Virus record (IMG/VR): IMGVR_UViG_2706794662_000007
Reading direction: 5' to 3' (one strand)
DNA from: a virus
Lineage: Duplodnaviria; Heunggongvirae; Uroviricota; Caudoviricetes
DNA: 64,000 nucleotides
The position numbers were made by a program, and so were the translations under genes. The notes under the pieces were generated by a model, which worked only from the letters and a program-made list of their open reading frames with translations, ran no database searches and was not told where the DNA came from. Positions 12,990 to 62,614 of the stretch are shown piece after piece. Every line of letters begins with the position of its first letter. Position 1 is the first letter of the stretch.

Positions 12990-13141
12990 ATGTTTTTCTC
13001 TTATCGTTTAGTTATTACATTCTTACACAAATTAAGTAAGTATTTACCTATCATTTAACGCGTTTGAAAACGTATACGCTGACTGTGATCCCTGTGTCTT
13101 CAAACTCGTTGGTAAACGACTTCCCTCTGGCATAAACGTAA

Positions 13142-14755
13142 TTATCCATCGTCATCCAGTCCAGTATTGGCGCNNNNNNNNNNNNNNNNNNNNNNNNNNN
13201 NNNNNNNNNNNNNNNNNNNNNNNNNNNNNNNNNNNNNNNNNNNNNNNNNNNNNNNNNNNNNNNNNNNNNNNNNNNNNNNNNNNNNNNNNNNNNNNNNNNN
13301 NNNNNNNNNNNNNNNNNNNNNNNNNNNNNNNNNNNNNNNNNNNNNNNNNNNNNNNNNNNNNNNNNNNNNNNNNNNNNNNNNNNNNNNNNNNNNNNNNNNN
13401 NNNNNNNNNNNNNNNNNNNNNNNNNNNNCCAGATCGGCGTTAATATAGGCCAGAAGATCCCCACGTCCGGCTTGAGGCTCCAACAGCTTCTCACCAGGCT
13501 TCAATTCAGTGGCTCTGGCAACGTACTCAGCAATCAAGCGTGGGGTAGGGTAGAACTGGTGTGATTTTGTATCCGGTATTAAACCGGTAGCCACAATCGT
13601 ATTTAGCGTATGGCCGATCTCATACGGGAACTGCCAGTGCTTTTTCTCCTGCACGCCGCCAATGAAGCTCAGTGTGCGCTCAAGCTCTTCCACCTGCGAC
13701 TTCTGGAGAGCTGAATCAGAGAAGTACCATACGCCTTTGTCTTTGCTCAATCGCCCGTCACGAAGCGCAGTGCGAACCGGCACGGAGATCGTCTTCTGGA
13801 TTAACCCGAACTGCTTTGGTGCCCGTGTTTTTGGCGCAGTTCGGCATGGCGCGGGGATTGCAGCAGGCATACTGTAAGCCAGCACCTCATTCAACTTCCA
13901 GGCCACGTCAGGATGTATTTCAAAGTGAACGTTGCCGTTCTTGAACATCTTCACGCGCATCAGATTTCCATCGACGTTCATCCAGTCACCGGTCTGGCAG
14001 TCGTTTGCCCGATACGCAGCTGATAGCACCTCAGCAGTGCGGTTGATGGTAATAAATTCTTTGTGCGCGAAGAAATGAAGCAAGACACGCAGATCGTCGA
14101 TGTAGTCCTCTTTGCGATAGTTCACGCTAACGCTGTCACGCCAGAAATCAGAAATGCAGTCAGCGATTATCAGACGCTCGCTGAAACCGTTTGTCTTATT
14201 TGTCTTGTGCGCAGGACTCAGCGCCTTAAACAAGCCATACACGCGCTCAGAGAGATATTTGTGCCTGTCATTCAGCAAATTAAGCATCGTTGGTATGACC
14301 GTTTCTGCTTTGAACTCCGGTACACCAACGAACTCTTTAACCTTCATCTGATAGCCGGTTCTGTCAGTTTTGATGACTTCCTGCTTGCCCTCGATAAATA
14401 GCTCACGCCACTCGTCGCGACGGGAAGCTGGCATGATCAGCAGAACGTTAGTCATATCCGTAACCTTCCTCCAGTACTCGGCCCAAATATTCTGTTTCAC
14501 CCATTCCAGATCGACGTTATCCAGCCAGACTCGATTCAAACGTGAGCGATCTTCATCTGGTCGGTGGTTTAGTCGAAGCAGGCGATTAATCATGTTGTGG
14601 CGTTCATCGCCATAAACGAAGTCGTGTACCTGATACATGAAGGAGATCTCTTTCTCGCACTCGGCCACAATTTCGTGGATGACGTTCATTTCCTGTCGAT
14701 AGTCGATAGCAGTGTTTGAGCTGGCATCGCCCATGATGGAAAGGGCTGTATTCAT
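13142..14755 (-). CDS. large protein with C-terminal N6-adenine methyltransferase-like motif; 3-prime part masked (true stop may be 13051)
   Basis: HQFYPTPRLIAEYV...LLEPQAGRGDLL resembles AdoMet-binding motifs of amino-MTases; N-run 13174-13428 hides the catalytic region. Confidence 0.4.
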   Translation of the reverse strand: MNTALSIMGDASSNTAIDYRQEMNVIHEIVAECEKEISFMYQVHDFVYGDERHNMINRLLRLNHRPDEDRSRLNRVWLDNVDLEWVKQNIWAEYWRKVTDMTNVLLIMPASRRDEWRELFIEGKQEVIKTDRTGYQMKVKEFVGVPEFKAETVIPTMLNLLNDRHKYLSERVYGLFKALSPAHKTNKTNGFSERLIIADCISDFWRDSVSVNYRKEDYIDDLRVLLHFFAHKEFITINRTAEVLSAAYRANDCQTGDWMNVDGNLMRVKMFKNGNVHFEIHPDVAWKLNEVLAYSMPAAIPAPCRTAPKTRAPKQFGLIQKTISVPVRTALRDGRLSKDKGVWYFSDSALQKSQVEELERTLSFIGGVQEKKHWQFPYEIGHTLNTIVATGLIPDTKSHQFYPTPRLIAEYVARATELKPGEKLLEPQAGRGDLLAYINADLXXXXXXXXXXXXXXXXXXXXXXXXXXXXXXXXXXXXXXXXXXXXXXXXXXXXXXXXXXXXXXXXXXXXXXXXXXXXXXXXXXXXXXANTGLDDDG

Positions 14756-14858
14756 AATTGCACCATTAAGAAATGATTTGTTTAATGATGCAATTATTTC
14801 AAAAATAAAAAGGTGCTAAATAGAAATTAACAGGCAATACTTAAAATAAAGGCATTGA

Positions 14859-59923: not shown

Positions 59924-61242
59924 TCTTTATCTCCGATTCGATCTTCGGTATCGCGTAAGCAACGCGGCCATTTCAGTCGTGGGTGGCGTAAGCTGCCATC
60001 AGGTGTTTTCTCGTGACAATGAACCTCGACAATACGACCACGGTACTTCTCTTTGTTGTTCCAGATCTCGTCCAGATATTTATGCTTAATGCCGCTCGCA
60101 CGAACGATGACGCCGTTTTCAAGACGAATAACTATTTTTCCAAGCGTGTTGGCAAAACCAGAGTCCGGGTCGCCCGGCTCAAAATCGATAATTTCACCAT
60201 CTTCTGAATCTTCGTCTTTTAACTTCCACCAGCTGCGGGTACGTTTAAACTCGTAAACAGAGTTCGGATCTTTGCCCATCTCCCCTTCTTCGTTATCGTC
60301 CAGGCGTTTCATGAAGCGTTCGATGAAGTCTTCGTGGCTATGGATGATATAGAACGGATGCAGGTGAATGTCTTGTGTGTAGCCTTCACTGCGATCGTTT
60401 TTAAACAACGCCACCAGCATAGCCAGGCGCTCTTTCAGCTTCATACCTGTCTTTGCATACTCTTTGGATTTAGCCTGTGCTCGCCATTCCGGTAGGAAGA
60501 AGTCGAAAACATGATAAATAGCGCCAATTGCCTGCACGTTCTTTTTGCGCAATGCAGATACGGACTGGTTAAATGAACCGGCAGTTCCTTCACCATCGAA
60601 GAAGATGTGTTTGTGGCCTGAAAGTTTGCCTAATTCTAGCATTGCTGGCTTTAGGTGATCGAGAGACGTGATTGGATTACCAGTACGAGAAAGGAAGTTA
60701 ACCTCTTCCTCGTCAACAATAACCTCGCAAATTACTCGCAAACCATCGAGCTTAAGACTGCCAATCATCGGCCATTTTGCTTTAGGATTTGGCTTGAAGG
60801 GGTATTTGTCGCCTTTTTCTTTATACGGTGACGCCAGCTGCACCTCGAATTTCGGAATGGGATTTTCAAAAACCTTGTTGCATAGGCTAATCCCAACACC
60901 TGCTTTCGGGTCTTTTAAGAGGAAACGACGGAACACGTCCTGCCCATCGGCGCACATTGACGCCACGATAGACTCAACAGCTGCTATTGCTGCGTTCCCC
61001 GTTAGCTCGCGAGAGGCCAGCTTATTCAGTACATCAATGGCTTTTTCGTCACTTGGGATGGACTCACTAAGCGGCTCTGCCACTTTGTATTTCTTTACCC
61101 CAAAACGGATGAAAGGGTTGAGCATCAATGAAACCATGCTTTGCTCGAAGTCATCCATGTTGGCCAATGCCTCTTTTTTTGCATTGGTTCCCATAGCTTT
61201 CATTTCGTCCAGCTTATGCTTAAGTGCGATCAACTTTTTCAT
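59920..61242 (-). CDS. ATP-dependent DNA ligase
   Basis: nucleotidyltransferase motif I KLDGLR (K-x-D-G-x-R), motif III-like FFDGEG, 440 aa. Confidence 0.8.
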   Translation of the reverse strand: MKKLIALKHKLDEMKAMGTNAKKEALANMDDFEQSMVSLMLNPFIRFGVKKYKVAEPLSESIPSDEKAIDVLNKLASRELTGNAAIAAVESIVASMCADGQDVFRRFLLKDPKAGVGISLCNKVFENPIPKFEVQLASPYKEKGDKYPFKPNPKAKWPMIGSLKLDGLRVICEVIVDEEEVNFLSRTGNPITSLDHLKPAMLELGKLSGHKHIFFDGEGTAGSFNQSVSALRKKNVQAIGAIYHVFDFFLPEWRAQAKSKEYAKTGMKLKERLAMLVALFKNDRSEGYTQDIHLHPFYIIHSHEDFIERFMKRLDDNEEGEMGKDPNSVYEFKRTRSWWKLKDEDSEDGEIIDFEPGDPDSGFANTLGKIVIRLENGVIVRASGIKHKYLDEIWNNKEKYRGRIVEVHCHEKTPDGSLRHPRLKWPRCLRDTEDRIGDKE

Positions 61243-62539
61243 TGTTGTTTTACCTCCATATGTTGATCGATTTGCTCATGTGTTTCTTTTGTTGTTTCTT
61301 CAAGCAACGCCGCATACACGTCAGTGATCGCTGTTTGTGATGTGGTGCTCTTCTTAACCATGCTATTAATCGTTACACTGTCACGTTTTCGTTTTAAAGT
61401 TCTGGCTTGTTTATTCCGTTCTTCAACCTCCTTAATGAGCGCGGTCATATCTTCGAAATACAGAGATTCTCCTTTACGAATCTCTTCAACCATCATTTTT
61501 AACGCCTTGCATTTGCCTGCTTTGATAGCGGTTGCGCACGACTGGAATGAAGTTCGAGGAAGACGGTTTTCTTTGAAGGCAAGAATGGTGTGCTGGCAAA
61601 CGGAGTAGCTGCAATATGCCGACTCACCGTTTATNNNNNNNNNNNNNNNNNNNNNNNNNNNNNNNNNNNNNNNNNNNNNNNNNNNNNNNNNNNNNNNNNN
61701 NNNNNNNNNNNNNNNNNNNNNNNNNNNNNNNNNNNNNNNNNNNNNNNNNNNNNNNNNNNNNNNNNNNNNNNNNNNNNNNNNNNNNNNNNNNNNNNNNNNN
61801 NNNNNNNNNNNNNNNNNNNNNNNNNNNNNNNNNNNNNNNNNNNNNNNNNNNNNNNNNNNNNNNNNNNNNNNNNNNNNNNNNNNNTAGCAATCCTGACCAC
61901 CTTCCAAGCAAATTCCGCCATTACGCCATCACATGCCTTCCCAGCATCAATAACGATATGCACCAGATCCAACTGGCTTTTGCACATGTCGCAAAGAGAC
62001 GCATACTCACTCTCTCTGATTACATTTACGGCATCATTAGCCCCTTTATTAAGCAAGACTTCCAACAGATTTTTCGGGGTAACGAAATCTGCTTTCAGAG
62101 ATAATGTCTTTTCACCACTTATCGAACGCAAGTACTCTTCGTAGTTATTCTTCATCAAACCGCTGCTGCGCATTGCTAGAACTGCTTCTTGAATGGCCGC
62201 TTCAATAGTTTCGTCGTTTGAAAGACAAAAAACGGTATTTGTGTAGATCACTCTGCCATCAAGCCATGCTCCAACCTGCACTTTAAGACTGAGCGGGTTT
62301 TCTTTGCTAATAAAAACAACTAATGCAGAACGTCGTGCACAAGAAGGTTCACCCCATACGTGTAACTTAACCTTCAGATAAGGTAGCCCCGGTAGCGGGA
62401 TCTCGACCAAACGAGTGGCGATATGATCCATTGCTGTTTTTACCGCTTTTTCAATGATGTCTAGTCGATTGCTCTCGCTGATTTCTAAACCAGTTTTATC
62501 AATGATGTCGCAGGCTAATTTCTGAATTTCGTCTTTCAT
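61239..62539 (-). CDS. hypothetical replication-associated protein (interrupted by N-run 61635-61884)
   Basis: two ORF pieces either side of the gap, between primase and ligase; frame continuity cannot be verified. Confidence 0.35.
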
Positions 62540-62614
62540 ACCAACTCCTAGCTAACAGATGAAAGTATTCTCACAGAAAGATAAGTAATCATCTACTTAT
62601 TTTAAAGGTGATTG

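Follow-up and report, generated by a model that had tools for sequence, protein, structure and literature searches.

Dispersed 22-bp palindromes in a window of 64,000 nucleotides (the whole stretch of DNA analysed), which is part of an SSU5-like E. coli phage-plasmid, appear on the sequence evidence to serve as operators for an element-encoded, dimeric DNA-binding protein, a reading considered reasonably probable, with the 128-aa XRE/Cro-CI-type repressor of 53858-54244 as the most likely protein. In the plasmid-prophage state this repressor would occupy about 30-35 such dyads, about 14 of them in the window, and would keep the phage genes silent while the element lives as a plasmid. The dyads would do so from short gaps between lytic genes, where many overlap the -35, spacer, -10 or start of gene-facing sigma70-type promoters, so that the bound repressor would obstruct RNA polymerase; where a copy lies between two genes of the same operon it may be a roadblock to elongation, and the repressor promoter, with a weak copy at +1, would be negatively autoregulated. 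No prior description of this motif for SSU5-like elements was found in the literature.

The palindrome family

The motif is a 22-bp dyad with arms RATARGTAAGT and ACTTACYTATY, equivalent to GATARGTA-N6-TACYTATC (in full GATAAGTAAGT and ACTTACTTATC). A preliminary description had reported recurrent palindromes built on GATA(A/G)GTAAG, and the sequence was read at all 13 coordinates that it listed. The family is real: a position weight matrix (PWM) at a threshold of at least 14 bits finds 14 sites in the window, 13 of them in the intergenic segments that make up 16% of it, against 0.09 expected (maximum 2) in shuffled or Markov-1 intergenic sequence. With at most three mismatches allowed there are 10 window sites, versus 0.45 expected (100 Markov-1 simulations; maximum 2). 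Eleven of the listed positions (13033, 18023, 20236, 25075, 29787, 34477, 37992, 42035, 45570, 59241 and 62580) hold strong sites of 23-27 bits, that given as 34477 having its true start at 34485, whereas 51157 is degenerate and 53814 weak, both being nonetheless conserved. The list had lacked the sites at 19194, 19575 (doubtful) and 52484. All are collected in Table 1.

Mirrored positions R5 and Y18 vary independently (A:T 39, A:C 36, G:C 30, G:T 22), and, read in gene direction, the two arms do not differ in composition, leaving no orientation bias. No conserved flanking element was found at a fixed distance from the palindromes, and no flanking position is conserved overall. Half-sites that are independent of each other and unoriented relative to genes speak for a protein that binds DNA as a dimer and against both an RNA hairpin and a directional promoter element, so that the palindrome is better read as a protein site than as a structure.

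Table 1. Palindromes and associated features of the window, with PWM scores, neighbouring genes and orthologous positions
Feature	Position	Strand	Bits	Context
Predicted operator	13031-13052		25.3	Minus strand reads GATAGGTAAATACTTACTTAAT; overlaps stop of DUF4942-like gene, Ead-like gene 41 nt downstream; orthologues Cyrano 84619, SSU5 84177
Predicted operator	18022-18043		24.4	Overlaps RNase H stop codon, 128 nt upstream of next gene; orthologues Cyrano 79650, SSU5 79903
Weaker operator-like palindrome	19194-19215		16.2	Overlaps stop of 76-aa gene, 159 nt upstream of 44-aa gene; orthologues Cyrano 78476, SSU5 78708
Doubtful member TATATATAAATAACTACATATT	19575-19596		18.0	Without G6 and Y18; AT-rich loop of longer inverted repeat (GCCTGCTTCTG...CGGAAGCAGGC), downstream of dam
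Predicted operator	20236-20257		26.7	Ends 10 nt before dam start codon
Predicted operator	25075-25096		23.9	13 nt upstream of thyX start
Predicted operator	29784-29805		26.9	ruvC-nrdA gap, 7 nt from ruvC stop and 44 nt from nrdA
Predicted operator	34485-34506		24.5	In 254-nt gap from ASCH-domain gene to sbcD; orthologues Cyrano 63198, SSU5 63079
Predicted operator	37992-38013		23.7	Abuts ATG of 59-aa membrane-peptide gene
Predicted operator	42033-42054		26.6	31 nt upstream of next gene
Predicted operator	45570-45591		25.7	Between uvsY (12 nt away) and gp32-like SSB gene (83 nt away)
Degenerate copy	51153-51174		9.7	cobT-cobS gap; one arm and centre intact (GATAAGTAATCACTTAC), other arm decayed; SSU5 orthologue at 45123, 17.3 bits
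Intragenic copy	52484-52505		16.6	Inside cobT; Cyrano 43931, 16.7 bits; SSU5 43660, 21.9 bits
Predicted sigma70 promoter of repressor gene	53786-53813	+		TTTACA-16-TAATAT; kept in variants with 66-70% identical protein
Weak palindrome TATCGGTAAGCACTTACCAGAG	53811-53832		8.7	Core GGTAAG-CA-CTTACC; at about +1 of repressor promoter
Gene for 128-aa XRE/Cro-CI-type HTH protein	53858-54244	+		Weak Pfam HTH_19/HTH_37 matches; homologue of CYRAN_45, "putative repressor"
Predicted operator, perfect consensus GATAAGTAAGTAAATACTTATC	59241-59262		26.9	0 mismatches; 9 nt past stop of 96-aa gene
Masked run of N	61635-61884			By gene mapping, probably hides orthologue of Cyrano site 35606 (15.6 bits, hyp34-hyp35 gap)
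Predicted operator	62580-62601		23.2	In gap 13 nt from primase gene and 40 nt from next gene; orthologues Cyrano 34729, SSU5 38177

Placement relative to genes and promoters

The sites had been placed usually 10-100 nt upstream of gene starts; most do lie just upstream, 8 of 13 within 100 nt of the next start, over a range of 0-159 nt. Eight overlap the preceding gene's stop codon or are at most 17 nt from it. In 40 kb, 6 of 17 promoter-like matches on the gene strand overlap a palindrome, against none on the opposite strand, where one match ends directly beside a site. Promoter scores at 23 Cyrano sites average 7.4 bits on the gene strand versus 5.4 on the opposite strand (Wilcoxon p=0.002).

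Relative to these sigma70-like promoters, the palindrome lies anywhere from about -41..-20 to -1..+20. The dam site overlaps the -10/start region of TTGCCA-17-AAAAAT with TG (20283..20255, minus strand; predicted span -9..+12), the nrdA site fills the spacer of TTGATA-17-TAACAT (29807..29779) and is followed by a GC hairpin (29778-29757), and the site at 42033 is embedded in TTGAAA-17-TATTAT (42059..42031; 10 of 12). Overlaps are also found for the membrane-peptide gene (TTTACA-17-TAGTAT, 38029..38001, with the same arrangement at SSU5 58073) and at 45570 (TAGATA-17-TATCAT, 45596..45568). Promoter overlap at such differing positions is expected of operators rather than of activator boxes. Three sites have a terminator 14-47 nt upstream, so that transcription must restart at them; on the gene strand the recA terminator hairpin (42089-42069) is 14 nt before the site at 42033, and a terminator-like hairpin (25162-25144) is 47 nt upstream of the thyX site.

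The family had been proposed as a regulatory class or promoter type separate from the AAAACAA/TTGTTTT palindrome family. It is a strongly enriched intergenic regulatory motif, but with an unoriented dyad, no fixed flanking element and variable promoter geometry it is not a promoter type; it behaves like the operator of a dimeric regulator, most likely the element's own XRE-type repressor. Nor are the two families strictly exclusive, since a TTTGTT-ATA-AACAAA palindrome (18045-18059) abuts the site at 18022.

The candidate repressor and its homologues

The XRE gene is transcribed opposite to the lytic genes and adjoins the integrase gene. An AlphaFold model of its product has a five-helix HTH with extra C-terminal helices, the nearest folds being Stl, C.AhdI, HigA and the 434 and lambda repressors. 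In variants with a 66-70% identical protein the core of the weak palindrome at the repressor promoter is kept while its flanks have diverged, and this copy is presumed to be a low-affinity autoregulatory operator. In the Cyrano lysogen, transcripts of the homologue, annotated as a putative repressor, reach 10-fold the local background (PMC9928086), which favors a repressor rather than an activator. We infer that the XRE protein would bind the sites and repress on binding, and that any of them might act as a roadblock.

At six Rhizobiaceae loci (55-59% GC) encoding distant homologues 29-38% identical to the repressor there is, at each, exactly one strong palindrome in 8-20 kb; five of them have it 86-95 nt upstream of the homologue and the sixth at about 60 nt, and Serratia and Photorhabdus homologues have sites 65-70 nt upstream. 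Against the XRE protein as binder, the recognition helices are very different (enterobacterial NANNLSLIKSG versus Rhizobiaceae GPEMLEGILRG) though the palindrome is the same, and for one homologue (L226, 35% identical) the 6 kb upstream contain no site. The Rhizobiaceae islands also have another XRE-like gene, transcribed divergently from the same intergenic region, whose product could be the binder there.

Conservation in related elements

The whole Cyrano genome has 33 positions of at least 14 bits versus 0.3 expected; of 35 sites selected there, 30 fall between genes. The accessory, partition, toxin-antitoxin, replication and integrase loci, among them most of the genes that the lysogen transcribes, carry no sites. 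In SSU5, about 80% identical, the palindromes are kept at orthologous positions with diverged flanks. SSU5 is without the integrase-repressor-hyp46 block, yet its sites are kept and are, if anything, nearer to consensus than those of Cyrano. From its absence in SSU5, lytic growth does not require the repressor gene, and since a plasmid 99% identical in the left flank still has the block, SSU5 lost it recently, by deletion; the near-consensus sites fit such a recent loss, and could also reflect another binder that SSU5 has kept.

In high-GC relatives, the motif occupies syntenic positions. One lineage with a syntenic repressor homologue has a variant, AGTCA-N4-TGACT, changed symmetrically in both arms, indicating that the predicted binding specificity evolves. 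Four high-GC contigs with many canonical sites (L044, L021, L055 and L103), covered as fragments, showed no repressor homologue, which counts against the repressor as binder.

Alternative binders

A subset of sites shares one fixed geometry, the palindrome at -41..-20 and then TGTAAGAAT, that resembles an activator box and counts against the repressor reading. The palindromes could be sites at which an activator of transcription, encoded by the phage, takes the place of the -35 in middle or late promoters, in the manner of the T4 MotA box (at -30, with a strong -10) or P1 Lpa, although we regard this as unlikely. Extended -10-like elements (TGTAAGAAT, TGTGAGGTT or TATAAGAT) follow the palindrome by 4-6 nt at several sites, placing the dyad at about -41..-20, and are kept between Cyrano and SSU5. 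Thus TGTAAGAAT begins 4 nt past the palindrome at 13031 and is kept in both orthologues; TGTGAGAAT begins 5 nt past that at 62580, which would put it at about -41..-20, and in the orthologues TTTCTGTAAGAAT is kept while the rest of the spacer has diverged; and on the gene strand the perfect-consensus site is followed by TATAAGAT, a -10-like element kept in SSU5, and then by a tRNA-Asn/Tyr/Thr/Ser cluster (tRNAs at 57689-58512, minus strand). Nearly every lytic operon of the early and late modules is preceded by a site, and SSU5 keeps the sites fully conserved without the repressor gene. However, only about 15-20% of sites have the -41..-20 geometry; other sites span -30..-9, -19..+2 or -9..+12 of predicted promoters or end 0-13 nt before a start codon. 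MotA and Lpa sites replace the -35 hexamer before a good or extended -10, as at this subset, but are directional and at a fixed distance, in contrast to an unbiased dyad of variable geometry. Repressor homologues in non-phage islands also have single copies in their promoters, and no candidate activator protein was found.

Less likely still are parS- or OB-like sites for the conserved ParB-family proteins CYRAN_119 and CYRAN_120, encoded beside the terminase genes outside the window, in KorB- or Noc-like global binding or as a sliding clamp. Both are ParB_N proteins, one with a GxxRxxA motif; their genes belong to a block that is conserved in high-GC relatives (uvsW, parB, parB-like, ABC ATPases, terS, terL), and the proteins are kept in the SSU5 lineage. 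Cyrano and two of three high-GC contigs examined have a site 14-17 nt ahead of parB, but this does not discriminate, because nearly every operon has one. The KorA/KorB regulon of RK2 similarly has short palindromic operators dispersed on a plasmid at varied promoter positions, with ParB-family genes present, but here no specific tie links the ParB proteins to the 22-mer, no HTH was found in them by sequence beyond the N-terminal domain, and the single-palindrome Rhizobiaceae islands have no ParB within 8-20 kb.

Recruitment of a host regulator such as a TetR-family protein seems very improbable. The exact palindrome ATAAGTAAG-NN-CTTACTTAT is found once, immediately next to TetR-family genes, in 19 of 41 matches from diverse bacterial genomes (some up to 75% GC), so that HTH dimers of the TetR family use this sequence; these genes, however, are from other phyla, the window, Cyrano, SSU5 and the related viral loci yielded no TetR-like gene, and a host factor common to Enterobacterales and Rhizobiales is hard to square with the lineage-specific symmetric variant. 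Finally, RNA hairpins (processing sites, mRNA stabilisers, translational operators or terminators) are disfavoured to the point of being scarcely credible, for although the palindromes are intergenic and transcribed, often directly follow stop codons or adjoin ribosome-binding sites, and in several cases adjoin GC-rich terminator hairpins, there is no covariation (non-pairing A:C is as frequent as A:T), individual positions are conserved by sequence and not by pairing, the AU-rich stem would be weak, and one of the best sites heads a tRNA cluster.

Comparison with known repressor systems

By analogy, the palindromes would work like the dispersed operators of P1 C1 or the stoperators of L5. The phage-plasmid P1 has 17 or more C1 repressor operators scattered over its genome, and both elements are plasmid prophages in which a single repressor is thought to control many lytic operons, from operators spread over about 100 kb that include the repressor's own promoter. 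P1 operators are, however, 17 bp and asymmetric, in contrast to the 22-bp perfect dyads here, and C1 (283 aa) is unrelated to the 128-aa XRE protein, for which binding is predicted. The conserved inverted repeats (CIRs) bound by the repressor of phiC31, an integrating Streptomyces phage, are also palindromic operators first seen at the repressor gene, with highly conserved intergenic copies beside promoters and terminators; they are 17 bp rather than 22 bp and confined to the early region, whereas in Cyrano copies extend to the structural and lysis modules.

Genomes of mycobacteriophage L5 and Cluster A each have 20-30 stoperators, repressor sites placed in the short gaps between genes of both early and late operons, of which some are in promoters and many are not; they are 13-14 bp, without dyad symmetry, monomer-bound and oriented with transcription, their motif varying between lineages along with the repressor (PMC6550527). 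The palindromes differ in being symmetric and unoriented, with a roadblock function that is only possible, and resemble stoperators in their many intergenic sites in early and late operons, in the presence of some in promoters and many outside them, and in a motif that differs by lineage.

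The palindrome family and its placement

On Megablast similarity, the window is identified as part of an SSU5-like phage-plasmid of E. coli, with 98.6% identity to 'Escherichia phage CMS-2020a', 95.5% to phage Cyrano (pLF82) and ~80% to Salmonella phage SSU5. Cyrano proteins mapped onto it delimit a replication, recombination and nucleotide-metabolism module and part of the accessory region, with nearly all genes on the minus strand. The thirteen palindromes picked out in the preliminary description align to one 22-bp dyad, GATARGTA-N6-TACYTATC, whose gene-sense consensus, RATARGTAAGTAnTTACYTATC, is a perfect palindrome with the halves GATAAGTAAGT and ACTTACTTATC. 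Allowing at most three mismatches, 10 sites occur in the window versus 0.45 expected from 100 Markov-1 simulations. With a palindromic PWM, 14 sites score at least 14 bits, the cut-off for a strong site, and 13 of these are intergenic, though intergenic DNA makes up 16% of the window; shuffled or Markov-1 intergenic sequence gave 0.09 expected sites and a maximum of 2. Both the recurrence of the palindrome and its enrichment over shuffled intergenic DNA were thereby borne out, with 11 of the listed positions strong (23-27 bits), 51157 a decayed copy (9.7 bits) and 53814 a weak one (8.7 bits). Additional copies were found at 19194, 19575 (doubtful) and 52484 (intragenic). Seven runs of the window are masked by N (Table); because Cyrano has a copy between the corresponding genes, the last of these runs probably covers a further copy, orthologous to Cyrano site 35606.

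Two other repeats occur in the window. The other family of the preliminary description is represented by two TTTGTT-N(3-5)-AACAAA palindromes versus 0.15 expected, at 18045-18059, abutting the dyad at 18022-18043, and at 53309-53325, where cobT begins 10 nt downstream. There is also a longer inverted repeat. This repeat, GCCTGCTTCTGTATATA...TATATAC(A/G)GAAGCAGG(C/T), lies within 19540-19640, and its AT-rich loop resembles the motif weakly. It is found twice in Cyrano (pieces L002+L001+L003; 31150-31215 and 78070-78150) and twice in SSU5 (33468 and 78318), and may be a separate element, for example a bidirectional terminator or an origin-like structure.

Table. Promoter-like sites overlapping the palindrome, terminator-like hairpins upstream of it, and masked runs (~250 nt each), in window coordinates
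Feature	Coordinates	Strand	Sequence or basis
Promoter-like	29807..29779	gene strand	TTGATA-17-TAACAT
Promoter-like	20283..20255	gene strand	TTGCCA-17-AAAAAT
Promoter-like	42059..42031	gene strand	TTGAAA-17-TATTAT
Promoter-like	45596..45568	gene strand	TAGATA-17-TATCAT
Promoter-like	38029..38001	gene strand	TTTACA-17-TAGTAT
Promoter-like	38017..37990	gene strand	consensus scan
Terminator-like hairpin	25162-25144	gene strand
Terminator-like hairpin	42089-42069	gene strand
Terminator-like hairpin	upstream of dam	gene strand
N-masked run	4263-4591
N-masked run	6780-7032
N-masked run	9353-9602
N-masked run	13174-13428
N-masked run	32187-32449
N-masked run	42918-43175
N-masked run	61635-61884

Symmetry and relation to promoters

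The nature of the element was evaluated with 270 non-redundant sites from related loci, for 132 of which gene orientation was confident. Mirrored positions were found to vary independently: the R5/Y18 pair is A:T in 39 sites, A:C in 36, G:C in 30 and G:T in 22, with 71 Watson-Crick pairs observed versus 62 under independence. Such independence indicates no selection for base pairing, against an RNA or DNA hairpin, and a structured RNA element (hairpin, REP-like or RNase III site) was rejected as compensatory pairing was not seen. Left and right arms have equal base frequencies relative to gene direction, so that no direction is marked, and this speaks against the dyad being in itself a promoter element. 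The earlier interpretation of the family as a promoter type was accordingly given up, the arms being unoriented, the 22 bp having no conserved position outside them family-wide, and the distance to the gene start in the window ranging over 0-159 nt; no downstream -10 or other flanking element is common to all sites, such elements being seen in a subset only. The pattern is what two equivalent half-sites contacted by a symmetric dimer would give.

The palindromes are nevertheless closely associated with promoter-like sequences. In a consensus scan of 40 kb, 6 of the 17 gene-strand promoter-like sites overlapped a palindrome (Table), versus none of the opposite-strand hits, one of which ends directly beside the 18022 site; given the symmetry of the palindrome itself, the flanks must be the source of this strand bias. 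A promoter score devised for this analysis gave, at 23 Cyrano sites, a mean of 7.4 bits for the gene strand versus 5.4 bits for the opposite one (Wilcoxon p=0.002), with 4.15 bits the mean at random positions. Relative to the predicted promoters, the dyad spans about -30..-9, -33..-12, -19..+2, -9..+12 or -1..+20, and in a subset with TGTAAGAAT or TGTGAGAAT after the dyad it spans -41..-20, an activator-like geometry. Variable overlap with core promoter elements of this sort is operator behaviour, as an activator box would hold one position. Three palindromes of the window have a terminator-like hairpin 14-47 nt upstream (Table), and the next gene must therefore be transcribed from a start at or within the palindrome. 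Some copies also fill very short gaps between co-directional genes, such as the one between terL and the portal gene of Cyrano and those at dam, thyX and hyp60 in the window, and most copies in such gaps still score as promoter-overlapping.

Distribution in relatives and depth of conservation

With the Cyrano genome joined from three pieces, a whole-genome scan revealed 33 positions of at least 14 bits versus 0.3 expected, and 30 of 35 selected sites were intergenic. Sites are also present outside the module represented in the window: in the terL/portal gap, after the major capsid gene, and before tail genes, the tail fibre gene, the holin gene and parB. No strong sites were found in the Cyrano accessory region (85.9-105 kb) or at its partition, toxin-antitoxin, repA, integrase and repressor loci, and most genes reported to be transcribed in the LF82 lysogen fall within these site-free regions (PMC9928086). 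SSU5 keeps the palindromes at orthologous positions within spacers that have otherwise diverged. Palindromes of the structural module are directly followed by GC hairpins (Cyrano 9039-9065, 5464-5500, 15550-15590 and 22469-22495), one of which shows compensatory changes (GCGCA...TGCGT at Cyrano 9039-9065 versus GCACC...GGTGC at SSU5 9088-9115), which suggests a conserved arrangement of putative operator then terminator after capsid and tail genes.

Conservation extends to viral contigs of 58-63% GC that have almost no nucleotide similarity to SSU5, with homologous terminase, portal, capsid, helicase, primase and ParB genes. The same AT-rich dyad is dense in these contigs, with up to 9 copies per 15 kb, and occurs at syntenic places such as the terL/portal gap and after the capsid gene just before a terminator. 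Those with many canonical sites were examined as fragments; one of these contigs has a gene for a replication protein of the RepC type, which is typical of Rhizobiales plasmids. Further high-GC contigs carry a homologue of the candidate repressor described below in the syntenic slot between the ligase and cobT genes. In three of these further contigs (L255, L259 and L260) a variant, AGTCA-N4-TGACT (tAAGTCAG-NN-CTGACTTa), replaces the canonical motif at 3-6 copies per 10-16 kb, with the identical change in both arms, as would be expected if a dimeric protein and its operators shifted specificity together. Their sister contigs L256-L258 contain neither dyad and may have yet another specificity.

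A candidate repressor

The first link to a candidate binder was a site in Rhizobium sp. RU33A, located in the promoter region of a gene whose product is homologous (E=3e-8) to the 128-aa protein encoded at 53858-54244 (+) in the window. This window gene matches CYRAN_45 of Cyrano, annotated as a putative repressor, whose transcription in the lysogen is 10-fold the local background (PMC9928086). Its predicted promoter, TTTACA-16-TAATAT, is immediately followed at +1 by a weak dyad, CGGTAAGCACTTACCAG, which is the copy at 53814. Promoter and dyad are kept in variants with a protein only 66-70% identical, where a second weak copy lies over the -35.

Pfam matches of the protein to HTH_19 and HTH_37 are weak and below the cut-off, and an S24 peptidase domain is absent. 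Its AlphaFold model, however, shows a five-helix XRE/Cro-CI HTH with C-terminal helices (mean pLDDT 79, with ~90 for residues 11-80), and the closest structural matches are to the N-terminal domain of Stl, to C.AhdI and HigA, and to the DNA-binding domains of the 434 and lambda repressors; superposition on C.AhdI, HigA and 434 repressor gave an rmsd of 1.5-2.7 A over 60-74 residues. On this modeling, the protein is assigned a five-helix HTH DNA-binding domain of XRE/Cro-CI type.

Homologues at least 54% identical occur in ~100-116 kb contigs from E. coli, Salmonella, Cronobacter, Enterobacter, Citrobacter, Klebsiella and Raoultella, and a profile search recovered Rhizobiaceae homologues that are 29-38% identical. 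Five further Rhizobiaceae loci (Rhizobium leguminosarum, R. lentis, Rhizobium sp. NRK18, Neorhizobium and Ensifer) each contain exactly one strong palindrome (19-23 bits) in 11-20 kb of 55-59% GC DNA, and in all five it is positioned 86-95 nt upstream of the homologue, in flanks that differ between loci. A site also lies 68 nt upstream of the homologue in a Serratia SSU5-like element, and sites lie 65 and 231 nt upstream in a Photorhabdus element; one homologue is without a nearby site. These upstream sites provide comparative support for the proposal that the XRE protein would bind the palindromes and repress. Despite the same site, the Rhizobiaceae homologues and the enterobacterial proteins have strongly different recognition helices, and the Rhizobiaceae islands have a second XRE-like gene in the same intergenic region as the homologue.

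The Rhizobiaceae chromosomal loci (L222, L223, L250, L251, L253 and L126) share a module order of DUF6538 tyrosine integrase, two small genes (one XRE-like), palindrome and repressor homologue. The module heads islands with varying, often defence-like cargo, including ResIII helicase with N6/N4 methylase, SIR2, PDDEXK and HsdM/S.

Other binders considered

The ParB-family proteins encoded beside the terminase genes are a possible alternative, as these genes are conserved there with a site upstream, and Cyrano has ParB_N genes, located outside the window; a ParB-like binder was not favoured, however, because islands with the palindrome have no ParB. A TetR-type protein was suggested by an exact-match scan of species-representative genomes (GTDB loci L127-L163), which yielded 41 loci, almost all with a single copy, 19 of them with ATAAGTAAG-NN-CTTACTTAT directly beside TetR-family genes. 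The hosts belong to other phyla (Acidimicrobiales, Acidobacteriota, Planctomycetota, cyanobacteria and others), with GC up to 75%, and in the Actinomycetota a conserved ~430-aa gene adjoins the site. The sequence is therefore a natural HTH operator elsewhere, in what looks like convergent use of the same operator, and a phage-encoded TetR-type binder was rejected after a profile built from these TetR proteins gave no match in the window, in Cyrano, in SSU5 or in the viral loci. The small window regulators reg37, Cra-like, hyp38, hyp39 and hyp46 have no Pfam hits and no motif link, and reg37 shows no similarity to an HTH_17 protein encoded next after a site in one high-GC relative. Likenesses to the host SlmA, Fur and TyrR sites and to the Arc operator were dropped because lengths and conserved positions do not match.

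A proposed multi-operator regulon and its meaning

The full chain of interpretation, in which the palindromes would be operators of a dimeric regulator that is most likely the XRE repressor of the element itself, is held with moderate confidence; that they are protein-binding operators of some kind is held more firmly. By binding the dispersed operators, the XRE repressor would keep the phage-plasmid silent. Like the regulons of P1 C1, L5 gp71 and phiC31 c, the system has many copies, placement at lytic genes with maintenance and lysogeny loci spared, and a putative repressor gene, expressed in the lysogen, with a site at its own promoter, and it is best regarded as a multi-operator repressor regulon of this general kind, belonging to none of the three families. 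The C1 operators of P1 are similarly dispersed, but C1 and the XRE protein are unrelated; phiC31, too, has conserved inverted repeats in a comparable arrangement. Stoperators of L5-type mycobacteriophages comprise 20-30 sites, some in promoters and most not, and are defined by asymmetry and orientation with transcription (PMC6550527). The arrangement here is alike in its dispersal, but the 22-bp dyad is unoriented and thus lacks those defining features.

A less likely extension of this reading is that the palindromes form a genome-wide silencing lattice for one small XRE repressor, in which copies within long co-directional operons act as elongation roadblocks, as do mycobacteriophage stoperators. 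If true, no such system would have been described before in Gram-negative phage-plasmids; it would be conserved between Enterobacterales and Rhizobiales, and symmetric GTAAGT versus GTCAGT variants would define immunity groups (SSU5, pKpn and pMT1-type elements).

A search of the full-text literature found no description of the motif or of repressor targets in SSU5-like elements, and no account of how SSU5/pHCM2-type phage-plasmids stay silent as plasmids. The kind of system is known, and this instance appears to be new to the literature and deeply conserved. Elements of this type are common among E. coli, Salmonella, Klebsiella and Enterobacter, some with antibiotic-resistance genes. An operator with a candidate repressor offers a testable model of their lysis-lysogeny switch, immunity groups predictable from sequence and a handle for inducing or curing the elements, and would explain through recent deletion why SSU5 is without an integrase-repressor lysogeny module.

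The integrase-repressor-hyp46 block is wholly missing from SSU5. Comparison of SSU5 (~41776-42761) with Enterobacter asburiae plasmid NZ_CP103753.1 (44079-50448; locus L254), which is 99% identical to it in the left flank, showed that ~6.5 kb is absent from SSU5, including phoH, glutaredoxin, YafO toxin, integrase, 128-aa regulator and 70-aa genes, with the last three positioned in the plasmid exactly at the SSU5 gap. As SSU5 is without the block and so close a plasmid retains it, the gene is dispensable for lytic growth and its loss is recent, and a recent loss would account for the SSU5 sites still being intact. Together with transcription of the Cyrano homologue in the lysogen, this favours a repressor role. 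SSU5, the type phage of the group, thus looks as if a recent deletion had removed its lysogeny module.

Other features of the element

Outside the window, CYRAN_114 of Cyrano (piece L003, 17781-18302; 173 aa) has a full-length match (E=1e-80) to the FljA family, 'repressor of phase-1 flagellin', is also conserved in SSU5, and is a second candidate regulator. Gene content differs between the window (38849-40871 and 55550-57463) and Cyrano (51112-51960 and 55065-57404): the window has three additional genes (129, 246 and 274 aa) and a 637-aa gene, and hicAB of Cyrano is missing from it. The Cyrano recA may carry an intein, as suspected because the window recA is much shorter than the 779-aa Cyrano version. 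Finally, the minus-strand leader at ~45500-45570, upstream of the gp32-like SSB gene, contains CTCGAAAGAGCCACGAAT(G/A)AACGAA.GCCCAACGCGCA and is kept between Cyrano and SSU5, unlike the diverging neighbouring spacers; by analogy with T4 gene 32, it may serve in autoregulation of the SSB gene.
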